DNA of 64,000 nt from contig RSEE01000012.1 of assembly GCA_003971905.1 (NCBI GenBank), forward strand, positions 186,001-250,000. Reading direction: 5' to 3'. Origin of the DNA: Moniliella sp. 'wahieum'. Taxonomy: Eukaryota. Both the position numbers and the translations under genes were made by a program. Numbering within the stretch: the first letter of the stretch is position 1; every line of letters begins with the position of its first letter. The notes under the pieces were generated by a model. The model did no database searches. It worked only from the letters and a program-made list of their open reading frames with translations, and was not told where the DNA came from. Shown piece after piece: positions 6,374-47,078 of the stretch.

Positions 6374-6696
6374 TTTTTCCCTTTTTACGGAAGACACTTC
6401 TTCTGGTAAAGCGAGCGAGCAGCATGCTTGTCGTAACGGCATGTACAGACTAGTACTGGCCAGCTCTACTTAATTCAGCTCAGGTCTACCCCGTACCTAT
6501 CCGATGGTCTGCTCTGGGCTCCGAACCGACAAAAAGGACAAATGACACATAGCTACCGCCCCGATCGCACCTGGCCCATCTCGCGGAACAAGCTCGGAAC
6601 CGAGTGGGGGAAGATGAGCAATGTAGTACGACCAAAGGCGGGGGAAGGGTGGGGGTGAGGGATCAAGGGTAGATCCAGGATCATGTATGTGATCGA

Positions 6697-6776
6697 TCAA
6701 AGATCAAGAACCAAGAACCAAAAACCAAGAACCAAGGATCAAGGATCAAGAACCAAGGATCAAGAACCAAGGATCA
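6697..6776. repeat. 7-bp tandem repeat (YCAAGRA)x~11
   Basis: tcaaaga tcaagaa ccaagaa ... ccaagga tca; abuts the SF3B6 stop codon. Confidence 0.9.
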
Positions 6777-7348
6777 TGATCGTGTCTCGTCAGGAATGTG
6801 GTGTTGGGATTTCAGTGCAGCCAAGTCTGCTTGTCGTTTGGCCAGTTCGGCTTTGGCGGTGAGACGTTGGGGCATGTGATAGAGGACGACGATGTAACGG
6901 TCTTGGAGGTGAAATCCATTGAGTTGGTCGACAGCGCGTTTAGCGTCCGCCTGGTCTTCGTATACCACATACGCTGTTCCGCGCGTCTTGGGTCCCGTGC
7001 CCAACCGAATTTGCCGAATCAGTCCGTACCGCCCAAACAACTCGTACAGGTCCGATCCTACCGGGAATCGGACCGATGAATTGGCAACGTACCCCGGCAG
7101 CCACTCAGTCAGCCAACTTGTCCCTCAGCCCACCCAACTTCACTTCACACTCCGCACTCTGCCTTTGGAGAAGAACGAGAGGGAAAGGGGGAGAGAGGAG
7201 AAAGGGGAGAGGAAGGAAGGGCGACGAAAGAAGGGAGAGAGAGAGGAAGGAAGGACAAGGAAGAAAGGCAACGTACCTTGGATGGCATAATTCAAGTTTT
7301 TAACAAACAGCATCCGGGAGTGATTGCGGCCCGCATCGCCAACGACAT
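6774..7348 (-). CDS. SF3B6: Pre-mRNA branch-site protein p14 (SF3B6/SF3b14), RRM; intron 7058-7276
   Basis: LFVKNLNY...DLYELFGRYGLIRQIRLG...TRGTAYVVYED...FHLQDRYIVVLYH; the GTACGT..TAG intron joins the frames. Confidence 0.92.
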
Positions 7349-18288: not shown

Positions 18289-19259
18289 TGAGTACTGGGT
18301 GGGATGGGACCGAAACACGGCGGGTCACACTGGTCGCCGTGACCGTCTGACCGTTGGACGGCACGGAGGGGCGGGTTGCATGTACTTTTTTTTTGTTATA
18401 GAAGAGATGGAATGTGCTTGATGCACGACGCCAATGTGAATACTGTAGTCCTGCTGGTGCAGGGACTGCCAGATGAACCCGAGTGTTTGCTGCCGGGTTG
18501 GCCAGGATAGGCCACTCCTATAGCGCCTAGGGAGGCGTTTAGATCCTGAAAAGGGAACAAGCGAGACTCCCCTGCAGTTCCATGATCATTCAATTGACGG
18601 GAACGTCAACGTTGGCGACACTGGTTCAAGCTTCAATCTTCAAGCTTCGACTCGTCATGCGTCACTTGAGCCGGAGAGAGTCTGAAGACCAGGAGGCAAA
18701 CGACGCCATTGATATTGACCTGCGACCTCCTGGTTGGATATCGAGTACGAGTATCCAAATTGCGCCAGCCCCCTCTGTAACCGGTAACCCTACCTTTCAA
18801 ATGTACTGGATGAGTTCAGCTAGGAGTTTGAAGTTTGAAATTGGATGGAGGCTGAGCGCTCACAGCCCCCCCGCCCCGCGGCAAAGCAAAGTTTGGCGCT
18901 CGCCACGCCCAGCACCAAGCTGATCAATTAAAATTGATGCCTTGGCCAGGTTGCTACTTTGGCAGCTTGATTGCTTTTGCTGCTTGGGGCTCGGGCCAGC
19001 GCTCGGTCCGTGGCCAGCAACCCACCAACCGAATCTGCCCATCTGCCCATGCCATCTGCCCATCGTATCAATGGCATCCATCGCACATCTCAGATCTCAT
19101 TAACTCATTCGACATCTCTTCATTAATCATTGAGCTAATTGATCTCATCGATTTCATCGATCATCTCGCATCTCCGTCGAGGTGTTGCTGGCATGTTGCG
19201 ACGGAGTACTGATTGTGAGTACGAGTGGACCGGGGAACGCCGTACGCGGTACGCAAGAC

Positions 19260-19357
19260 ACAGGACACAGGACACAGGACACAGGACACAGGACACAGGA
19301 CACAGGACACAGGACACAGGACACAGGACACAGGACACAGGACACAGGACACAGGAC
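19260..19357. repeat. Perfect 7-bp tandem repeat (ACAGGAC)x14 with degenerate flanks
   Basis: Read directly. Confidence 0.97.
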
Positions 19358-20162
19358 GCAGGACGCAGGAAGCAAGACGCAATATGCGCCCCGCTGAACG
19401 GTCAAGTTGACCCAAATGGGCTGCTCGGGTTCATCTGTTGCTCTAAGCCACTCCTTTAGTGGGTATAGCTAGGAGCCCGACGGGGGAAAGGCCGGGTATC
19501 GAGTCATCGAGTCATCGCGTCACTAGCTTCACTGGTCATCCGGTTTCGGTTCGGATGGCTCAAATGTGCTACGAACGTGGACGAGCCTGCTGGGGCCTGA
19601 TGATGCAGATGAAGCTGATGAAGTGCAGGCTTGATGCACAGACACCTTCTGCTACAGGCGTCGGGCCGAAGGATTAATGATTCCTCACTTGAAGTGCATC
19701 GTCCTTGCTTGGCTTTTGGTTTAGGGACGGAGATAAGCTGGTGCGCTTCCAGTATTCAGTACTCCGTCCCGTCTCTTGCTCCCTTGTTGCAAGAGAGAGA
19801 TGGGGAACGTCAGGAAGCGTGAAGGTATGCTGGGGAGGGGAGAAGACCAAGAAACCAAGATCGAAACGCGGAGGAACGCACGTGTCTGTCGAGCAGGATG
19901 GTCACTAGGCCACTAGGGTCGTGGGTCACCGATCACCGGTCACGGTCACCCCACTGGTCAGTAGCGTCACTGCGATGGTTCTTGGCTCCCGCTTGCCTCA
20001 GCTCACGCTCACGGCTCACGATCCCGAAGCAAATTGAGGCGAGTTGGCAGGTACGGAATATATATAGACCCACCCCTGCTCTCCCCCGAGCGCGGGCGGC
20101 GCCAAACACACCCCACACCACACCACACACCAGACACCAGACACCACATCCTGTTAGTGATC

Positions 20163-26967: not shown

Positions 26968-29900
26968 AAATGGACAAGACATCCATCGGATCCTGTGTCG
27001 CATGTTTGTGCGCGGAATAAAGGGACAATGTTGATTTGATTCTTTCCTTTCCTCCTTCGTGGTGCACCGATCACTTGGATCAAGCTTCAAGCTTCAATGA
27101 TCGATCTGATCGTAACTGATCGCCTCCAAAAACGACAAGCAGCTTACATGTGACTGCGCCGTTTAATTCTTTTGTTCGCCAAGTTGACATTTTATCGTCT
27201 TTCGCCGCGCCTCATCTTTTTTTGGGCGGCCCAGGCCACTTATCGGCACTTCCATATTTTCCTCCTTACTTCATGCCAACCCCCGTCCCTTTCGCCCTCC
27301 CCATTCCCCATTCCCCTACCCCATGCCAACAGTATCCATACCACAGCAACTCGGTTCAAGGCTTGTTAATGTCATCCCAGTGGAGCCCAGGTAAATGCAC
27401 CTGCAGGCCGTCGGACCCTGTATAGATCTCTCAAATCTCGCAGACGAGTGTAGTTGCTTGCCACGCGTTCCTCGGGCTCCGACGCCCGAACGAAATGCTC
27501 ACTATACTGCACCCCCCATGCAACCGATTTCAGTCCACTGTACCGTCGGGCTCGTCTGAGTGTGCGAAAGGGACAATTAATTGGTGGATGAGCAGAGCAC
27601 ATTCTGCAGCCCGCTTCGCCTCTTGCGCTTGCGCTTGCGCGTTTCTGGCCGAAGCAAACACGGTATCCCGCCCCGGTAGGCAACATCCGGGGGGGGGGTA
27701 TAGCATCGACAGCCCACAGGGTCGCAGAACTACTGGAACAACTAAGGAGGGGTTTCCCCGATGAGTAGAAACAACAGTGGACAGAGACAAAAGTCTTCAT
27801 ATATCGTAATCGCATCATAAATAAAAGGGTACACCATGATACTGTGGAAGAGGGAACGCAAGCAGGAACTAGAGTAAACAAAGCAACAGAAGAACCTTCT
27901 CTTCTCTGCCCATACATGTCGCAGCGAGATAAGGAACCGAACCGAACCGAACCGAAACACAAACAAAGAGCAGAGGATGACAACCGGACTGTCCATAGCT
28001 GCCAGGGGGGCCTTGGACGGCGTCCTGGACCGAACAAAACTCATTGGGGAGGGACGAAGGACGATGTGGATCCAGAGACCCAAAACATGGTACACGATCC
28101 GACGAATCCAACCAACTGAACAAGAACGAAGCGCGTCGATATAACGGACTGGGGTCCGTCGAACCAAAAGCAAGACAAATAAGGGGTAGAACGAGAGGAC
28201 CGGCGGGGACGTGGGTGTGGGGGGGGGGGGGGGGGGGCACTTCACGTTACGCGGTATGCGATAACACAAAGTGCCCTATTGGTATACGAAGGGTACGCGG
28301 TCGCGGTCCGAAGAGGCGGGGGAGGAAGGGATGCGCGGAGGGTACGGGCTACACGTGCCGCCCTTACGACGGCGACGCGGGAGCGAGACCTTGGTCTCTC
28401 TTTCGTCAGGGGTAAAGGAGGAGACCGAGCAGGACACGGCAAGAAGCGGAGGCGAGGAGGACCAACACGTGCTTGTTGGCCAAGGGATAAAGTTAGTTCG
28501 ACGCGGGGTGGGATGATGGGTGGGATGGGCGGGAAGGTGGAGGCGAACCCCATGGCGGAAGAGAGATGGGCGAGAATGGGCAGAAGGGATAGAAAGGGTA
28601 GAATGGGCAGAAGGGTAGAAGGGGCAGAAGGGGCGGAATAAGCAGAATGGGTAGAATGGGCAGAATGGGTAGGCAAGACAAGAGGCACGGACGAAACGTC
28701 CTCGAAGTGGGTAAAAGAGGATCAGAGTGGGAAGAAGTGTTAGGGGGGTTGAGGACAAGCCGGGTGACCGAGGCGTGGTTGGCGAGGAAAGGAGGCCAAT
28801 TGACGTTGACAGTGGAAGAGGTGTTGTTTGTTGGTAGACCAACAGGCTCCGCCAATGGCTGCACCTGTAGCACGGTCCACGTGGGGCCCCAATCGACCGC
28901 ACGACCACGAGGCGGACTGCCAGTGGGTAAAACGGGAACGGTGCGTTGCAGCGCGGGGGGCTCGAACAAAGGGTCGATCAGCGGCCCGGCGGCTGTTGTT
29001 GGATCGGAGAGAAGGGCGCCCCGCTGTGGGGTCCCAACGGCAAAAAGGGAAGCCTCGGGGGACCGATAGGCAATGGGGTCGTGGGCGGAGAGTGGTGCGT
29101 CATGTGGCTGGACGTCGGGGGTGGCGTGATGCATGTTAGGGGAAAGGGTATTCAGCTCGAGGGAGCGGTGCAGAGGACACGGGATCAACGTAGTCGGCAG
29201 CCAGGGGGGAGGGCGTGCGTTGGATGGGCGCAGCCGGTAGGGCAGAGGGAGATGTTGGGGGTTGAATGGTGACGGGGCACAAGGGTCTACTTTGGAGCGC
29301 ACGGACGGGGGAGGGGACATTATCGGAGGGAGTCGAGCCAGGAGATGAGCAAGGAGACAAGGGGCAGGTGGCTGCGAATCTACCCCGGCCACAATGGCGA
29401 GACAAGAAAGAGAGTCGGCAGCAACCGTCCGACGAAGAAGGAACGACGGTGGTGGCGAGGAGAACAGGGGAGAAAAGGAAAACAAGAGGGGCTGATACGG
29501 ATGTCACAAGACCCACAAGATGCTGAGAGTAGTTGTCTGAGCCAAAAGGCATCGGTGCTCCCCGTCGCTTAGTATTTCCGATTACCTCCCCCCGTTCCGA
29601 GAGGTAGCCGAAAGAGATGACATCGATGACATGATGATCGATGACATGATCACACATGCAGATGTGACGTGCGTGACATGTGACAATCTGTGACAGAGGA
29701 CCCCCCTGAACGTACTGAGGGCTGAACCAAAACAGGCAAGTGCGGTTTATTATTGCGCGCCTTGTTGCCACAGCAAAGCCAAAACGGCTGGAATATGAAA
29801 CAGCAGTAACATATCAGTCAAGTATGTTCCTCTTCCCCAGCTTGAGTATGTAGAAGACCAGAGAGAGCAGGCAGTTGATGCATGATGACGTATGGCATCG

Positions 29901-37335: not shown

Positions 37336-39368
37336 TCACGTCGTAGAAGGGAGGGGGATGGGGAGCAAAGGGGTAAATGTGGGTGTGGTAAGTGTCATGC
37401 GTTTGGGAGCTTCATGGGGCCGACGAAGGGGAGACCGTCCGGTGGGCCCTCGACTCGCCTGGACCGATTTCAAACGGGCGGCGCACGAGGATCGCCATGC
37501 TCGACAGCCCTTTCGAGCCAAAGGGTGGCCATGGTCAGATCAACGTCGGTGCCCACGCCAGCCTGGCAAAAGTAGCCCATTGCGTACTCGGCTTTGGCCA
37601 GGTTCTGTTCCGCGGCCTTTTTGGCCCAGAGATATGCCTCGGTATCGGACTGGGGCAGGATACCTGGCACACCCACCATGTACCAGGCCGTCAGGCAAAG
37701 CACGCTTCGGCATGATCCTGTTGAGCTGCAATGTTGTACATGTGCACGCTCAACCCCCCATCCACCGGACAGCCCATCCGACCATACTCGTAATTTTTCC
37801 CCATGAGGTAGGCAGACGGGGCGAACCCGAGCTGGGCAGCGCGGGTCAAGAGGTTGCATGCGTAGGTTGGATCGGTAAATACCACGCCTTCGATGCCTCG
37901 GTTGTGCAGCAGCCCTAGCTCATGCAACGCGCGCGGCCATTCAGGCGTGGCGGCTTGGGCGGACAATTTGAGGTACTTGACGCCCTGCCGGGAATTCTTG
38001 GTTCGTCCCAACTCGCCATTGAGTTCGGCCATGCCTAGGCGGTAGAGCGCACCAGGGTGGCCGGCGGCAGCGGCCTTACGGAGCCATTTGAATGCCTTGC
38101 TGGTATCTTTCAGACAGCCCCAGCCTTGCTCAAAGCACCGTCCTACCTTGAAGGAAGCGTCGGCATGGCCATGTTTGGCGGCTAGGACGTAGAGTGCATG
38201 CGCCTGGACCATCTGTGGCTTGTTGTCCGGATGCCCCACTCCTGCCGCCAAGCATTCGGCCAGGTAGAATTGAGCTGCGACATGACCTCGGTCAGCAATC
38301 TTGCGCAGCAACTCCATGGCCCCCCGAACGAGGTGGTGGTGCTCGCCAATCGGCAGGTCATCTCGTACTTGCGCGGCCTCCAAGATGAAAATGGCCAGCT
38401 CATACACAGATTGAGGATCCTCCACTTTGCTCGCATTGCGAAGATAGAGTTCCAGGGTCTGGCTGTGCGAGAGAAGTCGAGGTTGTCGCCAAGATGAAGA
38501 TGGGTGTTATCAAACTTGGCTGCGCTCGAAGCGCTAGGGGAGAGAACGGCAACAGAGCGCCGGGAGCCAGCCGAGTAGTTGCCAAACCTATCCGTTGGAT
38601 GGGACCAAGCGGATCCGCGCACACTCTTACGTCGGTCGCTGGGGGAGGAGAGGGAAGATCTAGATGCGGAAGAAGCATCATGAGAGGGTGCCAGGTGAAC
38701 AGGGGATACCTTGCCTTTCCCAGCTGCCAAGGCCTTTGTCGTAGGCACTCGATTCTCATCCTCGGAGCCAGGCATCAAACCCGTATCGGATGGCAAAGCA
38801 ATTGAGCTTGCTGTACCGTACCTTACTTTTGGACCGAGTGTGGACGGTGAAATAAACCTGATCCGATTCAGCCATACTAGACCGTGGGAGCGCTGCAAGA
38901 GAAGGGGGGCTCCAGCTGATGAGGCCGTCATGCTCCCCCGTCTGGACGGATTGGTGGCACTTTCTGCATCGGTCGATCTGTGCGACAAGGGGATACTGTG
39001 CTGTTGACGCTTAGGCGCCGACTGAGCCCGCTGAGCAAAGACGAGGCACGCTTAGAGTAGCGTTGGCCGAGCCTGTAGCTGGATGGAGGAGGCGGAGGGT
39101 CAGCTCTCGAGAAGCCCCCAGGACCTTGTTGTCTTCCCCAGCGGGGGGGTCCAGTGGTACCTTTGCCTGCCAGACTGGCGCTGCTCAGGCTGCCGGCGCG
39201 GGAGGTGAAGGTGGTAGCCGTGGTCGAAGGCGGAAGTCCGGTCGAAGGCGGAAGTCCGGTCGAGCCGGAGTGCCAGAACGAATCGGTGGAACCATAGCGG
39301 GAGTTCCAAGGGTAAGAACTAGGTGGGCTAGTTTTGGAGATGGCTGGGGAAGAAGATGTTGAGTCCAT
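37336..39368 (-). CDS. Sel1-repeat protein, chitin synthase activator Chs4/Skt5-like
   Basis: Serial Sel1 repeats: AQFYLAEC, AAKHGHADASFKVGRCFEQGWG, ALYRLGMAELNGELG, YEYGRMGCPVDGGLSVHMY, AWYMVG, AEYAMGYF. Confidence 0.88.
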
Positions 39369-39873
39369 GGCGTCTATACCACAGCGGTGACCAAGCCGTA
39401 GAGTGGAAGAGCTGCGGTACTAGGAATAAGAAAGAGGTTAGAGGAGCAGGCGGTGGTGGTAGTGGTGGTGGTACAGGAGGGGAAGGCAAGTCAACCTGTG
39501 GCTTTTTGCAATTATCTGAAAGACGTGAGGCCGTGTGGTTTGATGGAGCTGTGGGGCGGGTGGAGTCAGAGAAAAGCAATATGTACCCCCTTCAACCCTA
39601 AACCCCTTTATGCTATGCTAGAGACTGCTAGAGGCTTGGCCGACTTTGATCGAAGCCTGGTGCATGATGCATGATGCATGATGCATGGTGGTAAGTGCAG
39701 CACGCTCAGTACGTCAGTACACTCAGTTGAGTCGATGAGAAACCCTGGCGGTAAATCGGTTTAGAGCCAGGTACGTGACAGTATTGCAAACGAGACATAG
39801 TAGTACGGTACTAGCTGCAGAGATATAGTATTAGGCCTGCGTCACGACGATCCACATTATAGGGACCACAGGC

Positions 39874-40084
39874 TGTTGACCACCAGTGGTCTAGAGCCCA
39901 TCGGCCTTCAGTGACACGTGGCCCGATCCACACAGTGCACCGGGGCAGTGAGTTCCGACCCTTCCACGGGTCTCCACTGGCCTCCAGGCCAGGAGCCTAT
40001 CAAGGCCCATAGCTCTAGCTCTCCTTAGCTCTTGAATGCCATCTCCATCGACCATCGCCAGCATCGCTAGCTAGGCCTGTGACA
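39874..40084 (+). repeat. 5' LTR
   Basis: TGTTGACC...CTGTGACA; matches the 3' LTR except one C/T. Confidence 0.97.
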
Positions 40085-40230
40085 GAGCTACAATCTGAAG
40101 CACCCCACTGGCGCAAAGGATCAATACTCAGCACCACCATCGGCGCCCACCGTCACCACCCCACCCCAACGCCACCATCGGCACCACACACCAACCAATT
40201 CAAAAAAAAACAAAGGAAAAATCAGCCACC

Positions 40231-41457
40231 ATGCCCCCCGAACTGGAAGAAAACACCCCTCCTCCCGAAGTCTCTGTCATCGAAGAGGCGCAGACATCGA
40301 CGAACCGACCACCACCCCTGTCTCCGACCCGACCTGGCAACAGGCCCTCACCCCGTCAGAGACAACCTCCGCAAGCACCCGCGCGTTCAAGCCCACCAGC
40401 GCTGACAATCTCCGCTCCACATGCCGCTCGTTCGCTACGGATGCACACACGGCGGCGTATGGACCGAAGAGCAAGAAAACACCGGGCGGAAAGGAAAATT
40501 GGATCTACACGCTCACCCTCGCGTTGGAGAAATATGTATTGGCCGTTGAATTCACGAAGCCGCAAAACACCCGTGAGGCCCTTGCATCCGCGAGTGAGGA
40601 CATGGCCGAGCTTCGCCACGCTGAGAAACGCGCGTCAAAAGAGATCGAGCGTACCAACGCGACGCGCAAGGACGCCTTCCGCGACCCACCGAATATGTGC
40701 TCTGGGAGCCCTCCATCCTCAACATCCTGGACCGCATCCACCCCGCCGCGAAGGACATCGTTCGCTCCGGTCCATCGTCACCACACTACGACTCGTCCCT
40801 CGATCTACGCCTCCAGAACCTTCTGTTGGTCCCACCTCCCGAACGACGTTCAATCTGCCATTATTGCACAGGACAACGTTGACACGTCAGCTGACTTGCT
40901 CCGTGCCCTGCGAAACAATACGGTACGGTCGACTGCAAGACGTATCATGAATTGTCCAGTCGCTTTCACCACTGCTACCAAAACCGGCGCAGCGGAGCGC
41001 GTTCCTATCTGAAATGGGGACGCTCCGCAACCGGATCAGCGCAACCACACCGATGTCGGACGAGCAATTCCGCCGTATCCTCGTCGGGGCCCTCCGCGAC
41101 CCTGGTGACCGTCGCCGCCTAGAGCACATGACTCTGGCGGAGACAATGCAAGACGTGGAGAGAATCCCAGCGGACCCAGAGTACAGAATTCCGTACCGGG
41201 GCCGTCACCCCCGGACCGCCAACTCGGGCGCTGGCAAACACGACAGCGCGGGATCCCAGCAGCATAGCGGGGGTCCTCCTGCCGGTGCATCTCCCCGTAG
41301 CGGGGGTGCTCTTGCGAGAAAGCCGTCCGGCCACACCGGGGTTCCTTCGAACAACAAATGGCACCGCAACAGCTCCGCGCGAGCGCACATTGCCACCGAA
41401 GACGACGTCTCCGAAGGGGAGACCCTGTCTGTGGACCTTGCCCTATCTGACAAATAG
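40231..41457 (+). CDS. Retrotransposon Gag (several apparent frameshifts), ends at TAG 41455-41457
   Basis: GCCACCATG start after an A-rich leader; helical capsid-like segments; position between the 5' LTR and the protease. Confidence 0.7.
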
Positions 41458-44400
41458 GAACTCGCGGGCAACCAGGACATCCAGTCTCGTCACGACTCGG
41501 GCGCGGATCCTAGCATCTGGAAGGATCTCAGGGTATTCAAAACCCTCAAGCCCAGCAACCGCTCAATCGAAATCGCTGATGGAAAACATATTAAAGCCAG
41601 TGGACGCGGAACATGTAGCATCGGTATCAAGTGTACCGACGGCAAATGTATCCATGTAGACCTACCCGGCAGTCTATACGTCCCCGGCATAGCAAGCAAT
41701 CTCACGAGCGTAGCGCAAATAAGTGACGCAGGCCACGCATCCTGGTTCGCCCCCCACCGAAAAGGTATCTGGTTAAATGACAAGCATGGCAAATATCACC
41801 AAATCGCGGATTCCTCATACAAGCTGAACATCGTCCCGAAACCGACACCCACAAACGAACACGCGGCCAAAGCTGCCGTCGCCACCCAACACACCGCAGC
41901 CAACACCATCGAGCACGTCATGTACGTTCACCAACAGTACAACCACGCCGCGCTAGACCTACTCCCGACACTAACCGCCAACGCGCGAGCGAGCCTCCGC
42001 GTCAGCCCTGCCCAAATCCGACGCATCCGCCCCTTCTGGCATTGTCCCACCTGCACAAAAGCTCTGGCCAAAGCGCCCAGCCACCCTTCGCGCCACGGCC
42101 GCCGCATTTCGGAACGTCCTTTCGAAGTACTGCACGCCGACGTAGTCGACCTCCCTCGCATCACTGGCATGGGACATGGATACGCCCTGGTCGCGGTTGA
42201 TGACTGGAGCCGTTACACCTTCGCTGTTCCCCTAAAGACGAAAGGACAAGCCACGGCGGAGCTGAAAAAACTCATCACCCGCGAGCAACGCATCGGAAAG
42301 GACCGTCTGCTTCGCATCTTGAAGACAGACAATGCCCCCGAGCTCACCAGCGCACTCCGTCCGTTCCTTGAATCCGAAGGTATCACGACGGAAACCACCA
42401 TACCAGGCCAAAGTCAATCAAATGGGGTGGCCGAGCGAGCCATCCAGGCAATCACCACACGCGCGCGCCAACTCATCATCGCCTCGGGCCTCCCGACATC
42501 AAACTGGTGGCAGGATGCCTTGCTGGCAGGGTGCTGGACGCACAACCTCATGCCACCGACATCTCCACGCCAGGGCACACAATCTCGGGCTGAGCTGTAC
42601 AAGGGGTCACCCCCACCGCTGCCAATGCACGCCTTCGGATCCTTGGCGTACCTTCACCTGGCCCAGGACCAACGTGACCATAAGCTCAGTCCGCGGGCTG
42701 TCGAAGCCATGCTCGTCGGGTACGACGCAGGTCGAGGTACAAAGGGTTGGCGCTGGGCTGTGTACGACCCGTCCATGGGCACGTTCCGATCCCAATGGGC
42801 AAAACCATACAAGTGGACCCAGCGCCAATACCACGAGGTTTTCCCCGACCGCTTTCCGCCTGACGTATCTCGCTTCCCCGCTCAACCCCTGCCTGACAGA
42901 ACTATGACTGACACTGAAACCAAAAAGGGAGAAGAAAAAATGAACAAAATTGAAGTTGCAAATCCCAACACACCACCGAGAATCAACACTGATACTGACG
43001 CGACCATCGCAAGACAAAACGACACCCATCCAACCACCCCCACCACCAGACGGTACCCCGCCCGGACCCACCAGCGCCGTTTTGACCTTGACTGGGCACA
43101 GCTCCCCGTAGCGGACGACCCTCATGATGGTGACTTCCACGCACACGCTGCCGCGCTGCCTCCGGTTCCCCTCCCTGACGGTAGTCGTAGTCCTGCGATC
43201 GGCCTACGCTTCCCACTGCCCGACACTGCCCTGCCCGCGTACAGCGACGGTCTCCATCCGCCTGAATACAAGGCGATGATCGCCCTTAGCGAGCCAGGGC
43301 CGCACGAGCGCATCCAGCTCACCAAGGACGGAGTACCTGTTGCACCCAAGACAATGAAGGGCCTCCAATCACACCCCTCATTCGAACCAGTGCTGGAGGC
43401 GATGCGCACGGAAATCGACACCCTAGCCCGCTACGGCACATTCGAAGTCGTCACGCCCCCTCCAGACGCGCAGCTGCTGATTGGTCTATGGCGCATCAAC
43501 ACCAAAACGGACGCGGACGGAAATTTCCTACGCTACCGAGCCCGTCTCGTTGCCGGGGGCCACCAGCAGGATGCTGACACATGGGGACAAACATTCGCCC
43601 CTGCCGTGCGCACTCCTGCCATCCTCAGCCTTATCGCCCTTGCTGGAAAGTTCGGCCTCCACCTCTTCACTGCTGATGTGCACTCTGCCTATTTGAACGC
43701 TCCCCTCACGGAAAAAGTGTACCTCCGCCCACCCCCATTCTTTCCCGAGGAAAAAGGCAAGGTCTGGCGTCTCCGGAAAAGCCTATATGGCCTCCACCAA
43801 TCCGGCGCAAACTGGGCGGTATTCATCCGTGACTTGCTCCGCGGAGACATGGGTTTTGTACAATCTCTGGCTGAGCCGTGCTTGTTCATCCGACCCCGTA
43901 AAGGCGACACGGTCCTCCTTGCCGTGCACACCGACGATCTTCTCATCGCCTGCACGTCTCACGCACGCTACGATTCCTTCCTCACTGAGATCAACACCCA
44001 TATCGAGGTGCGGGGAAACGGCCCCCTACACTACCATCTTGGCTGCCAGTACGACACCATAAACGGGAAACTGTACCTTAGCCAGCCAAAATTCATTGAG
44101 GAATCCATTGCCAAACATGAGGTTCCGCCACCCCTGGTTATGGGCCTCCCCCACCCCAGCAAGATGATCCCCGCGCGCACCGACCCCGAACCGCCCGCAC
44201 TGCCCGCCGAGAGACGCGACTATCAAGCCAAAGTAGGATCTGGGCTGTGGGCTGCCCGCATGTGCCGCCCTGATGCGCTGTTCGGCATCTCAGCTCTAAG
44301 CCGAGCAACTGCCGATCCCTCCAAGGCCCACCGCGCTGCGGCAACAAACTTCCTCCGCTACCTCTACGGTACCAAGGGCTACGGTCTCCGACTAACACCC

Positions 44401-44934
44401 GAGCCTAACGCACCCGCTCTCGCGCTATACACGGATGCCGACCTGGCTGGAGACCCTGACCAATGGCGTTCCACGTCGGGATGCCTGCTTTTCGTCTACG
44501 GGGTTCCAGTGTCCTGGAGGAGCGTGCGTCAACCCAAGAGCGTCACCAACACTGCTGCGGCCGAATATACGGCGGGATATGAGGGCCTCATTGATGCGAA
44601 CTACGTTAAAAACATCTTACTGGAGCTCGGTGCCATCACCTCAGACGAGCCCATACACTGGTACTGCGACAACATGGCGGCACTTGCCTTGGCCGAAAAA
44701 GTGGGCAGCACGGGCAAACTACGTGAGCTGAACATCCGGTACCACAACGTACGCCAGCATGTCGACTCGGGCGAAGTCAAAATCGCGCACATTGCTGGAA
44801 ACGAGAACCCGGCCGACATCCTCACCAAACCAGCCACTAAGGTCTCACTCCTGGCCAACTTGCCTCGCCTCAAGCTTGAGGACGTTACAACCTTCCATCG
44901 TGCCACTGAGACCTCTGGCCAGCGGGGGTGTTGA
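41458..44934 (+). CDS. Retrotransposon Pol (protease, integrase, RT, RNase H); open from directly after the gag TAG
   Basis: PR HDSGA...IEIADG...LYVPGIASNL; IN HQQYNH..CPTC, LHADV, KTDNAPE, NGVAER; RT RYRARLVAGG, LRKSLYGLHQSG, HTDD; RH YTDAD, YCDN, ENPADILTKP. Confidence 0.96.
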   Translation, partial: ELAGNQDIQSRHDSGADPSIWKDLRVFKTLKPSNRSIEIADGKHIKASGRGTCSIGIKCTDGKCIHVDLPGSLYVPGIASNLTSVAQISDAGHASWFAPHRKGIWLNDKHGKYHQIADSSYKLNIVPKPTPTNEHAAKAAVATQHTAANTIEHVMYVHQQYNHAALDLLPTLTANARASLRVSPAQIRRIRPFWHCPTCTKALAKAPSHPSRHGRRISERPFEVLHADVVDLPRITGMGHGYALVAVDDWSRYTFAVPLKTKGQATAELKKLITREQRIGKDRLLRILKTDNAPELTSALRPFLESEGITTETTIPGQSQSNGVAERAIQAITTRARQLIIASGLPTSNWWQDALLAGCWTHNLMPPTSPRQGTQSRAELYKGSPPPLPMHAFGSLAYLHLAQDQRDHKLSPRAVEAMLVGYDAGRGTKGWRWAVYDPSMGTFRSQWAKPYKWTQRQYHEVFPDRFPPDVSRFPAQPLPDRTMTDTETKKGEEKMNKIEVANPNTPPRINTDTDATIARQNDTHPTTPTTRRYPARTHQRRFDLDWAQLPVADDPHDGDFHAHAAALPPVPLPDGSRSPAIGLRFPLPDTALPAYSDGLHPPEYKAMIALSEPGPHERIQLTKDGVPVAPKTMKGLQSHPSFEPVLEAMRTEIDTLARYGTFEVVTPPPDAQLLIGLWRINTKTDADGNFLRYRARLVAGGHQQDADTWGQTFAPAVRTPAILSLIALAGKFGLHLFTADVHSAYLNAPLTEKVYLRPPPFFPEEKGKVWRLRKSLYGLHQSGANWAVFIRDLLRGDMGFVQSLAEPCLFIRPRKGDTVLLAVHTDDLLIACTSHARYDSFLTEINTHIEVRGNGPLHYHLGCQYDTINGKLYLSQPKFIEESIAKHEVPPPLVMGLPHPSKMIPARTDPEPPALPAERRDYQAKVGSGLWAARMCRPDALFGISALSRATADPSKAHRAAATNFLRYLYGTKGYGLRLTPEPNAPALALYTDADLAGDPDQWRSTSGCLLFVYGVPVSWRSVRQPKSVTNTAAAEYTAGYEGLIDANYVKNILLELGAITSDEPIHWYCDNMAALALAEKVGSTGKLRELNIRYHNVRQHVDSGEVKIAHIAGNENPADILTKPATKVSLLANLPRLKLEDVTTFHRATETSGQRGC

Positions 44935-45139
44935 CCACCAGTGGTCTAGAGCCCATCGGCCTTCAGTGACACGTGGCCCGATCCACACAGTGCACCGGGG
45001 CAGTGAGTTCCGACCCTTCCACGGGTTTCCACTGGCCTCCAGGCCAGGAGCCTATCAAGGCCCATAGCTCTAGCTCTCCTTAGCTCTTGAATGCCATCTC
45101 CATCGACCATCGCCAGCATCGCTAGCTAGGCCTGTGACA
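44929..45139 (+). repeat. 3' LTR
   Basis: Direct repeat of 39874-40084; contains the pol stop TGA. Confidence 0.97.
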
Positions 45140-47006
45140 CAGGCCTCCGAACACGAGGTGGGGCCGGTACTTGGGGTGCTGTGACGCTCACACGCACCCG
45201 TGTAGCAGAAACGCCGACTCGTAAGGGGGTGCAGCAGCAGAAAAGGGAAGCGGTATAAGCAGGTTATAACCGGCTGGTACTCTCGTTGCGCGCGTTATTG
45301 CCGGTTAGGGCGATTATACCATGGTAACAGACCGGTAACAGGTATCTCAAACGGCGCCACCGACTTCCGCGGGTCCTGCTTTGCTCGCAACCATCCCGTG
45401 CCCCACACCTCTCACGCGGAGGAGTGAGCTAGTGGCTATACTGGGGACGATGATCGATGAGCGATGATCTCGATGATCAGGCTATGAGCGCCTGAGCGCC
45501 TGAGCTCCGTACATCCGCGCTGCACTGCCTCCGGCAAGGGTGTCGTCCATGTCATGATGCACCATGCAATACTTCCTCAGTACGTCGCCGAGGGGGGCGG
45601 GCGTCGGAGATGTGTGTAGGTAAGTGCACGCGTCCGCACTGGCATCAGCTGTGGCTGCTGTGGCAGGTGTGCGCAACGCCCCGCGTATGTTGATCGCGCG
45701 CGCTTGGCAGCCAGCGCCCAACCCAGCATCGGCCAGGGCGGGTGGGTTGTAGGGCAGACAGACAGCGCACGCGCTCACGCGCTACAGACGCTGAAGCGCT
45801 GAAGGGCTTGAAGCTTCAAGCCAGCTACGATCTACGAGAGGCGCACGCGCGGATGAGATCTCATCTGAGATCTCTGACATGGTGGGGCTGAAACCAAAGT
45901 CGCATGTGGCACCTACGTAGACCGCAAGAAAGGCCCCGCTCCCGTGCAGGGCCCATGGCACCATAGTGCGCACAATGCCCCGCCACTAAACGTTTCAGTC
46001 GTCACGTGGACAGAGCTCTCACGTGACCTCTCTTGACCCTGCTCCCATCGCCTCTCTTTGCCCACACCGCATTGGTCTCGCCGTGTGTGCTCGGCATAAT
46101 GCATAACAAGAGGAAACGGCGGCGGAAGAACGCCAATCCTACGGGCTACCAGGCCGTGGCAACAATAGGAGCGCTTGATGGATCCGAGACGAAGATGAAG
46201 AAGGTGGAGGGAACCACACCTGGCGCCTTTTGAAGCATGGCGTCATGTGGAGAGAGGACGAGAGTAGCCAAAAATGTGCGAGATATACTTTCCCGAAGAT
46301 GGTACATGGGTGAGGAGTGATATCCTCAGTCGTCTCAGGCACGGCGGTTGAAAAACAACTGAATCAGCTGCGTTTGAGCAAGTGAATAGCAGGACGATGG
46401 CCAAAAGTACTAGAGTCGCATCCTCAATCCGTTCTTCTTTTCTCTTAGCCCATCATGATGACGTGCGAGAGGGTGCAAAGCCATCAAGAAAGGGGCGGAT
46501 ACTAGTCCACACTATGCTCATCCTACCCGCTCGCGCTCCACCCTAACCGGTGGCTAGGGTCAGAGGCTCTCTAATATTGATGAGACCTGGAGTCCTGATG
46601 GTCCTCCAGGGAGATGCAACGCACTAGTGATGGTATCGGTGATGGTGGTTGAAGCCAACCTGCAACACCTATACTACAAAGGTGCTCCAAGCTACCACAG
46701 TCGCCCCGCAGGCTAGGCTAGGCTGCGGAACAAGGAAAACAGAAGCGAGAAGATTATATTGGAAGAAACCTAGGCCTACTGAGGAGGGATTGTGAAGGGA
46801 TCTTGACCAAACACACGAGCCACCCCGCGGCTCAACACCTACCTGCTGGTCACGCCGTTGGGTTTTGATGGGGTGGGCTCGAGCTGTCAACAGCAAACGT
46901 CGATTATGCGAGTTTAGATCTTAGGGGGCGAAACGGTAGCATGGCTTTGTCACTGGACCGCAAAGAGAAGCCTAAGAGATTCACAATTTACAAACATTGA
47001 TATAAA

Positions 47007-47078
47007 GCCTCTTTGGCTCAATGGTAAGGCGTCGCACTCGTAATGCGAAGATTAGTCGTTCGATTCGGCTAGGAGGCA
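47007..47078 (+). tRNA. tRNA-Thr(CGT), intronless
   Basis: Acceptor GCCTCTT/AGGAGGC, anticodon stem TCGCA/TGCGA, loop CT-CGT-AA, TTCGATT, T6 terminator. Confidence 0.95.

Follow-up and report, generated by a model that had tools for sequence, protein, structure and literature searches.

A conserved in-frame UAG between gag and pol in a basidiomycete copia clade is probably a programmed readthrough signal with a predicted 3′ helix

We analyzed a window of 64,000 nucleotides from Moniliella sp. 'wahieum' (assembly GCA_003971905.1, contig RSEE01000012.1, positions 186,001-250,000 of the forward strand); all coordinates below are positions within this window. A complete long terminal repeat (LTR) element spans 39874-45139, and its gag and pol genes share one reading frame that is interrupted by a single TAG. 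We refer to the family of this element as family A, and to nine other copia families with a TAG-G junction in the same genome as families B to J. Positions written with a plus sign are counted from the first base after the stop. The features of the element are as follows.

39869..39873, repeated at 45140-45144, + strand: target-site duplication CAGGC, 5 bp, read directly
39874..40084, + strand: 5′ LTR, 211 nt, TG...CA, from LTR comparison
40085..40098, + strand: primer-binding site (PBS) of the tRNA-Tyr(GUA) anticodon-arm type, 13/14 bases matching
40231..41454, + strand: gag, 410 codons where unbroken, frameshifted by indels in the window copy, from open reading frame (ORF) reading and a structure match
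41455..41457, + strand: in-frame TAG separating gag from pol, in 20/20 copies and nine other families
41458..41465, + strand: 8-nt spacer GAACTCGC, identical in family G, which opens the TAG-GRN-NNC-GNG motif
41458..44934, + strand: pol frame, 1158 codons, with its TGA inside the 3′ LTR, from ORF reading
41466..41477, + strand: 5′ arm (+9..+20) of a predicted long-range stem, pair probabilities 0.96-1.0
41494..41733, + strand: protease (PR), D-S-G-A at codons 13-16, Pfam Pol_BBD, E 2e-11
41740..41752, + strand: predicted 3′ arm (+283..+295) of the stem, in codons A-S-W-F-A-P, from folding
42112..42411, + strand: integrase (IN) core, rve, Pfam, E 2.6e-9
43435..44121, + strand: reverse transcriptase (RT), RVT_2, Pfam, E 6e-36
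44917..44928, + strand: purine-rich tract preceding the 3′ LTR, a polypurine tract candidate, read directly
44929..45139, + strand: 3′ LTR, from LTR comparison

The element is a young Ty1/copia of a fungus that belongs to the basidiomycetes (Ustilaginomycotina-like). The two LTRs are 99% identical, with a single difference counted by eye, and the element has the LTRs, PBS, polypurine tract, target-site duplication, capsid-fold Gag and PR-IN-RT order with a copia-type RT (Pol_BBD, rve, RVT_2) that define the Pseudoviridae. The host is assigned to the basidiomycetes because, among named proteins, those of Ustilaginomycotina come nearest to its eRF1 (no more than 91% identity). An earlier note on this DNA had placed the start of the last gag segment at 41014; the real start of gag is the ATG at 40231, and the frame is broken by copy-specific indels in the window copy. 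Seven of the 20 family-A copies retain an open gag of 410 codons ending at the TAG. The encoded protein has a Gly/Arg-rich tail and no CCHC knuckle that we could see, and its match in Pfam is weak. Residues 236-318 of a structural model aligned with the C-terminal domain (CTD) of a Ty1-derived capsid (9rxy; Z 9.1, root-mean-square deviation 2.7, 83 aligned), and the model also aligned with the Drosophila Copia capsid (8vvw; Z 8.9, root-mean-square deviation 11.5, 157 aligned), with a model confidence (pLDDT) of 52 overall and about 80 across the CTD. Foldseek returned no match to this model at E≤0.001, and a sequence search of the PDB using the gag alignment returned nothing relevant.

The codons before the TAG are GAC AAA, and the frame beyond it stays open for 1158 codons, up to the TGA at 44932-44934. 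The catalytic Asp, the first residue of D-S-G-A, is codon 13 after the stop, close to the 11 or so estimated in the earlier note, and the first in-frame ATG is codon 155 (41920). The note had described the same open frame and the same absence of an earlier ATG; we further found no in-frame ATG, CTG, GTG, TTG or ACG between the TAG and the catalytic Asp. TAG is not a sense codon in this host: it occurs as one in 0 of 4947 codons of four long element ORFs, and the host eRF1 carries TASNIKS and YLCDNKF, which we take to be the usual eRF1 motifs.

Searching the genome with the element gave 21 matches, 20 of which span the junction. The codon is TAG in every one of these, with an unchanged 3′ context and in no case a sense codon, which argues that the TAG is not an assembly error, even though the assembly is error-rich and most family-A copies carry indel frameshifts. 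Further families were found by genome searches with Pol and the Pfam protease model, and a subset of the loci was fetched. In family B, whose Pol is 61% identical to that of family A, TAG is present in 28/28 fetched loci. Families B, C, D, E, F, G and I have an in-frame TAG-G between 13 and 54 codons upstream of the catalytic Asp, with the Pol of family G being only ~31% identical to that of family A. Families H and J are single copies, each with TAG-G at the junction plus a nearby frame break. The placement of the stop exactly at the gag/protease junction, as the note had it for the window element, is thus repeated in ten families, A to J. In one unrelated copia copy (K), no stop interrupts the frame at the junction. 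In an RT tree (FastTree), families A to G and J form one clade with a support of 0.94, which I joins weakly (0.58), and the A-G/J group stands apart from 17 distant proteins, several of which are single gag-pol ORFs; two copies with AGG in place of the stop, H and K (all four lacking an RT match) and one short match (L169) are not part of the tree. The in-frame TAG is inherited and conserved across copies and families.

Independent short-read assemblies place a stop at the same position. A Logan contig of 5089 nt encodes a 410-aa Gag that is 94% identical to that of family A and ends at the same residue, while its separately called Pol begins at the same downstream ATG. This contig crosses the junction with 179 substitutions and 14 gaps relative to the window element and no joint there, and a contig of 5549 nt shows the same gag/pol split for family D. 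The Logan contigs therefore bear out, from separate reads, the stop that the note had seen, showing that a stop occupies that place and not which codon it is. Relatives with DNA context were absent from the metagenome and viral contigs scanned. Protein searches returned close strains and distant copia proteins of at most 36% identity, several of them single gag-pol ORFs, and the named copia relatives found were at most 30% identical.

Conservation extends past the stop itself. The motif TAG-GRN-NNC-GNG is present as it stands in 8/10 families, compared with 14 of 4939 codon triplets in pol (0.3%). The C at +6 is the third position of Leu, Ser, Gly, Tyr or Cys codons, and the G at +9 is the third position of Ala or Gly codons. 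Since both bases are kept at third positions of differing codons, the wobble conservation points to a constraint on RNA and not on protein. In families A and G, the ten bases after the stop are identical at ~31% protein identity.

We next consider structure. A duplex search in family A paired +9..+20 with +283..+295 (41740-52), giving 12 bp with a 1-nt bulge and a 262-nt loop, and this distal stem is present in both the minimum free energy and centroid structures of the 341-nt fold, with pair probabilities of 0.96-1.0. In families B and C the predicted partner is at the homologous distal codons, and the pairing sequences differ, one pair being G-C in B and A-U in C. The predicted stem is long-range in A, B and C and a local hairpin in D, E, F, G and H, with a helix that starts at +9 in A, G and H, at +8 in B and C, and at +5 or +6 in D, E and F. 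A helix across +9..+13 at p≥0.85 was found at 8/10 junctions and in 5/90 control windows. Synonymous resampling, run family by family, gave 35, 19 and 18 of 2000, and in the A/B comparison both energies reach −21 kcal/mol or lower only in the window that follows the stop. Together this predicts a stable helix starting 4-9 nt after the stop. The local sequence alone gave no such signal: the 121-nt fold was no better than shuffles (z −1.3), none of the families folded significantly better than shuffles over 70 nt (z +1.1 to −1.5), and Rfam had no match over the element at E≤1. The stimulatory structure suggested in the earlier note, which paired TAGGA (41455-59) with TCCTA (41508-12) and TCGCG with CGCGG, was rejected, as its pair probability is 0.00 in both the 121-nt and 341-nt ensembles; the stem predicted instead is a different one, from +9.

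How does this junction compare with known recoding systems? Tca2 (pCal), a Ty1/copia element of Candida albicans, has gag and pol in one frame with a UGA between them (PMC2194720). Like the element in the window, it is a fungal copia with a stop-split single frame and an 8-nt spacer followed by a predicted structure (PMC2194720), and C. albicans elements are reported with internal tRNA primers (PMC2194720, PMC7175516, PMC4139406). Tca2 differs in its UGA, its spacer AAAACAGG, a proposed local pseudoknot and an ascomycete yeast host (PMC2194720), whereas the clade described here has UAG-G, the GRN-NNC-GNG motif in many families, a predicted distal stem, a tRNA-Tyr-type PBS and a basidiomycete host. 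VdLTRE5 of Verticillium dahliae is also a fungal copia with an in-frame stop splitting gag and pol and no CARYYA motif, but the stop is UGA, there are two copies, and the accessible text identifies no signal (PMC3441728). Among Ty3/gypsy elements, Tj1, Tosmo1-3 and Tcry1 of fission yeasts form a fungal LTR clade with a conserved in-frame gag/pol stop and conserved flanking bases, differing in their GAA-TGA-CT context and in having no structure described in the accessible text (bioRxiv 10.1101/2022.12.06.519325).

Outside fungi, murine leukemia virus (MuLV) offers a close parallel in context: at its Gag/protease junction, G and a purine come directly after the UAG, and a structure begins at G9 behind an 8-nt spacer; the structure there is a compact H-type pseudoknot, as opposed to the long-loop stem or hairpin predicted here (PMC13517186, PMC3159437). 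The family-A spacer is also not purine-rich (4/8), unlike that of MuLV. The type III hexamer is given as UAGGGV, UAGGUA or UAGGAU (PMC13517186). Family A (UAG-GAA) falls outside it, families F (UAG-GGA) and I (UAG-GGG) fit, and G is at +1 in ten of ten families. The 8-nt spacer of type III is present, counted to a structure that is predicted, and the predicted nested stem already takes up +9..+20. The context UAG-GAACUC matches neither type I (CARYYA) nor type II (UGA-CGG/CUA). In its geometry the family-A stem, with 8-nt spacer, 12 bp, 1-nt bulge and 262-nt loop, resembles those of Venezuelan equine encephalitis virus, Sindbis virus and Drosophila kelch, which have an 8-12-nt spacer, an 11-14-bp stem, a 1-nt bulge and a loop of 101-268 nt (PMC3159437). 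Those stems follow UGA, and none belongs to a retrotransposon (PMC3159437). A single conserved in-frame stop between gag and pol is common to this clade, Tca2, VdLTRE5, Tj1 and MuLV. The arrangement is less unprecedented than the earlier note implied, since gag-UGA-pol copia elements had been described in Tca2 and VdLTRE5; what look like new features relative to these are the UAG, its clade-wide conservation and the distal stem. In the literature searched, which did not extend to most subscription papers, we found neither a copia element split by UAG nor a retrotransposon with a distal stimulator.

Gag and pol lie in one frame, the TAG is fixed in copies and families, and its 3′ context is kept at wobble positions. 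We consider programmed UAG readthrough, helped by a 3′ helix, to be the best explanation and, judging from the DNA, a likely one. We propose that the clade would set its ratio of Gag to Gag-Pol through a leaky UAG. Most ribosomes would halt there and yield the 410-aa Gag, while a few percent, held up where the helix meets the mRNA entry channel, would accept a near-cognate tRNA, inserting Gln or Tyr by precedent, and produce a Gag-Pol of ~1570 aa that is then cut by the protease. Stop-less derivatives would be secondary losses that yield Gag-Pol only. The earlier note had read the junction as UAG readthrough in a basidiomycete copia lineage; the conserved, lineage-wide UAG in ten families and the basidiomycete host hold, and the decoding step is inferred. 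A broader version, in which an old basidiomycete copia clade independently evolved gammaretrovirus-style UAG-G readthrough, with the helix register fixed after an 8-nt spacer and the 3′ arm having moved over time, lying either close by as part of a hairpin or ~280 nt into the protease gene, is one that we hold tentatively and rate slightly below an even chance.

Several points weigh against readthrough with a helix. Family J lacks the motif, and both I and J fail the helix test. The 341-nt fold of family A has a z of only −1.4 overall, control windows given their best partner reach p≤0.02 in 2/20 cases for A and 4/20 for B, and agreement of partners between A and B also arises in 22/154 ordinary windows. 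The cut-offs for the A/B agreement and the +9..+13 helix tests were chosen after seeing the data, the families are related and amount to ~4-5 independent groups, and all of them come from one genome and close strains. The distal stem is a prediction, and readthrough itself is deduced from DNA. By analogy, the similar-looking Tca2 junction is a caution: a reporter with 150 nt on each side gave no readthrough, and the mechanism was called undetermined (PMC7175516). A 3′ arm as distant as the one predicted here would be left out by a 150-nt flank.

Copies without the stop also count against it. Among 28 family-D loci, 22 lack the stop, 17 of them through a common in-frame deletion of 81 nt, 3 with TCG and 2 with AGG in its place, and 6 keep TAG. 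The deletion takes out the stop and the first arm of the hairpin, and one stop-less copy has an open frame of 1504 codons. In family G, 1/6 loci lacks the stop and also the hairpin. A copy can therefore multiply without the stop, at least as long as relatives that bear it are present in the same cell. Those stop-less copies that have a place in the RT tree nest inside TAG families, and for this reason they are best read as losses. The 81-nt deletion derivative is a natural switch to single-ORF organization. As a separate observation, it outnumbers the stop-bearing form 17 to 6 (L052, L055, L187-L197).

We weighed other ways in which Pol could be made. The stop might be bypassed in translation without the stem. 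The signal would then be the short context, a sequence farther off or a factor acting in trans, for example RT bound to eRF1, and the stem would serve packaging or replication or have arisen by chance. The silent Tca2 junction, the modest structure statistics of each family and the variation in stem type among families all fit this idea. Yet the helix starts where the MuLV (G9), alphavirus and kelch stems are reported to start, its register is kept whether the partner is local or distal, and family G combines the same 8-nt spacer as family A with a hairpin from +9, so we regard stem-free bypass as unlikely. Splicing, with TAG-G as the 3′ acceptor of an intron whose removal takes away the end of gag and the stop and fuses gag to pol, is the foremost rival open to testing, but seems to us quite improbable. 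YAG-G does fit the acceptor consensus in all ten families and a CTGAC lies 3 nt upstream of the TAG in A and B, a spacing for which an unverified motif scan of host loci offers some parallel (0-3 nt from branch to acceptor in 21/98). In eight host introns read by eye, by contrast, this spacing is 7-37 nt, half of the ten families lack a branch-like motif, and a pattern-limited search over 600 nt in A, B, C and G turned up no donor-like site that is in phase. An intron ending at the TAG is missing from none of the loci seen in families A (20) and B (28), and the family-D deletion starts with GA, ends with CT and runs beyond the TAG, so that it is not GT-AG; it has no exact microhomology either. 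An acceptor would also leave the conservation to +9, the stem and the absence of CAG unexplained.

The remaining alternatives fare worse against the copies themselves. Stop-bearing elements could make Gag only and take Pol from stop-less copies, which are numerous in family D and include the long open frame noted above. We think this very improbable, as no stop-less copy was seen in A (20 loci) or B (28 loci), where pol is open for 1158 and 1146 codons at 61% identity, and as stop-less copies nest within TAG families. Some filamentous ascomycetes are known to correct UAG stops by editing, and A-to-I editing of UAG to UGG (Trp) in part of the RNA would suit a codon that is always TAG. The host is a basidiomycete, though, and reverse transcription of edited RNA would leave TGG copies, of which the fetched loci contain none (the variants are TCG and AGG); we give editing very little chance as well. 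An assembly error or chance nonsense mutation is suggested by the error-rich assembly and its many frameshifted copies, but with TAG in 20/20 copies and at nine other family junctions, and a stop in independent contigs, its probability is negligible.

We conclude that the feature, which is real and conserved, is probably a programmed readthrough signal. How a stop-split copia makes its Pol is still called unresolved for Tca2 (PMC7175516), and the main value of this clade lies in a UAG signal kept clade-wide and a long-range stem that can be tested: its ten natural junctions, the motif at wobble positions and a concrete structure with two arms are open to direct experiment. The distal stem predicts that reporters with only ~150 nt downstream would miss the signal. 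If true, a retrotransposon would here make use of a long-range stimulator of readthrough, and a moved 3′ arm could explain the failure of the Tca2 reporter with 150-nt flanks. Through the stop-less derivatives, a single genome shows elements passing between readthrough and single-ORF organization. An annotation would count stop-split elements like these as dead on account of the stop, though they are young and multicopy.

Elements of families A to E carry a PBS that fits a tRNA-Tyr half, and tRNA-Tyr is a classic natural suppressor of UAG. The PBS at 40085-40098 can pair with the host's intron-containing tRNA-Tyr(GUA) along the anticodon arm, as far as ~nt 40, with 13/14 bases matching if the intron is at the canonical 37/38 position. 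A search for this pairing gave 29 matches and 0 in the control, after a first search pattern had returned chance matches only. The identity of the tRNA was read by eye, since ARAGORN without its intron mode miscalled it (L226:1472-1570). Families B to E have nearly the same PBS, and a family-G copy (L176) has a different one, presumably an initiator-Met half-tRNA site. Priming by a short tRNA segment is the hemivirus type (International Committee on Taxonomy of Viruses, Pseudoviridae profile). From its sequence, the family-A PBS would be of this type, pairing with the anticodon arm of tRNA-Tyr and not with the CCA end. We found no tRNA-Tyr half primer for copia in the literature searched. A short LTR element with a period of ~1.15 kb, often in tandem, has a PBS and purine tract in common with family A (L074, many of 109 matches) and is probably a non-autonomous passenger resembling a terminal-repeat retrotransposon in miniature.

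Other observations concern the surroundings of the element and the genome. The insertion site adjoins a Sel1-repeat gene on the minus strand (37691-39400, Pfam Sel1), which we take to be chitin-synthase-activator-like. A tRNA-Thr(CGU) gene lies at 47007-47078, 1.9 kb from the element, and ~40 tRNA matches of equal score suggest that this gene is highly repeated or that a repeat has derived from a tRNA. The genes for actin, eRF1 and pelota are present in several diverged copies, many with indel errors (L200-L225), and these multiple copies suggest a hybrid or duplicated genome. The internal transcribed spacers ITS1 and ITS2 are very short and the 5.8S rRNA is divergent (L073:1225-1610), with rDNA matches near the ends of many contigs. 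Tandem repeats of short units (7-nt and 9-nt periods) are found in the window at 6695-6790, 19223-19390 and 28555-28695.

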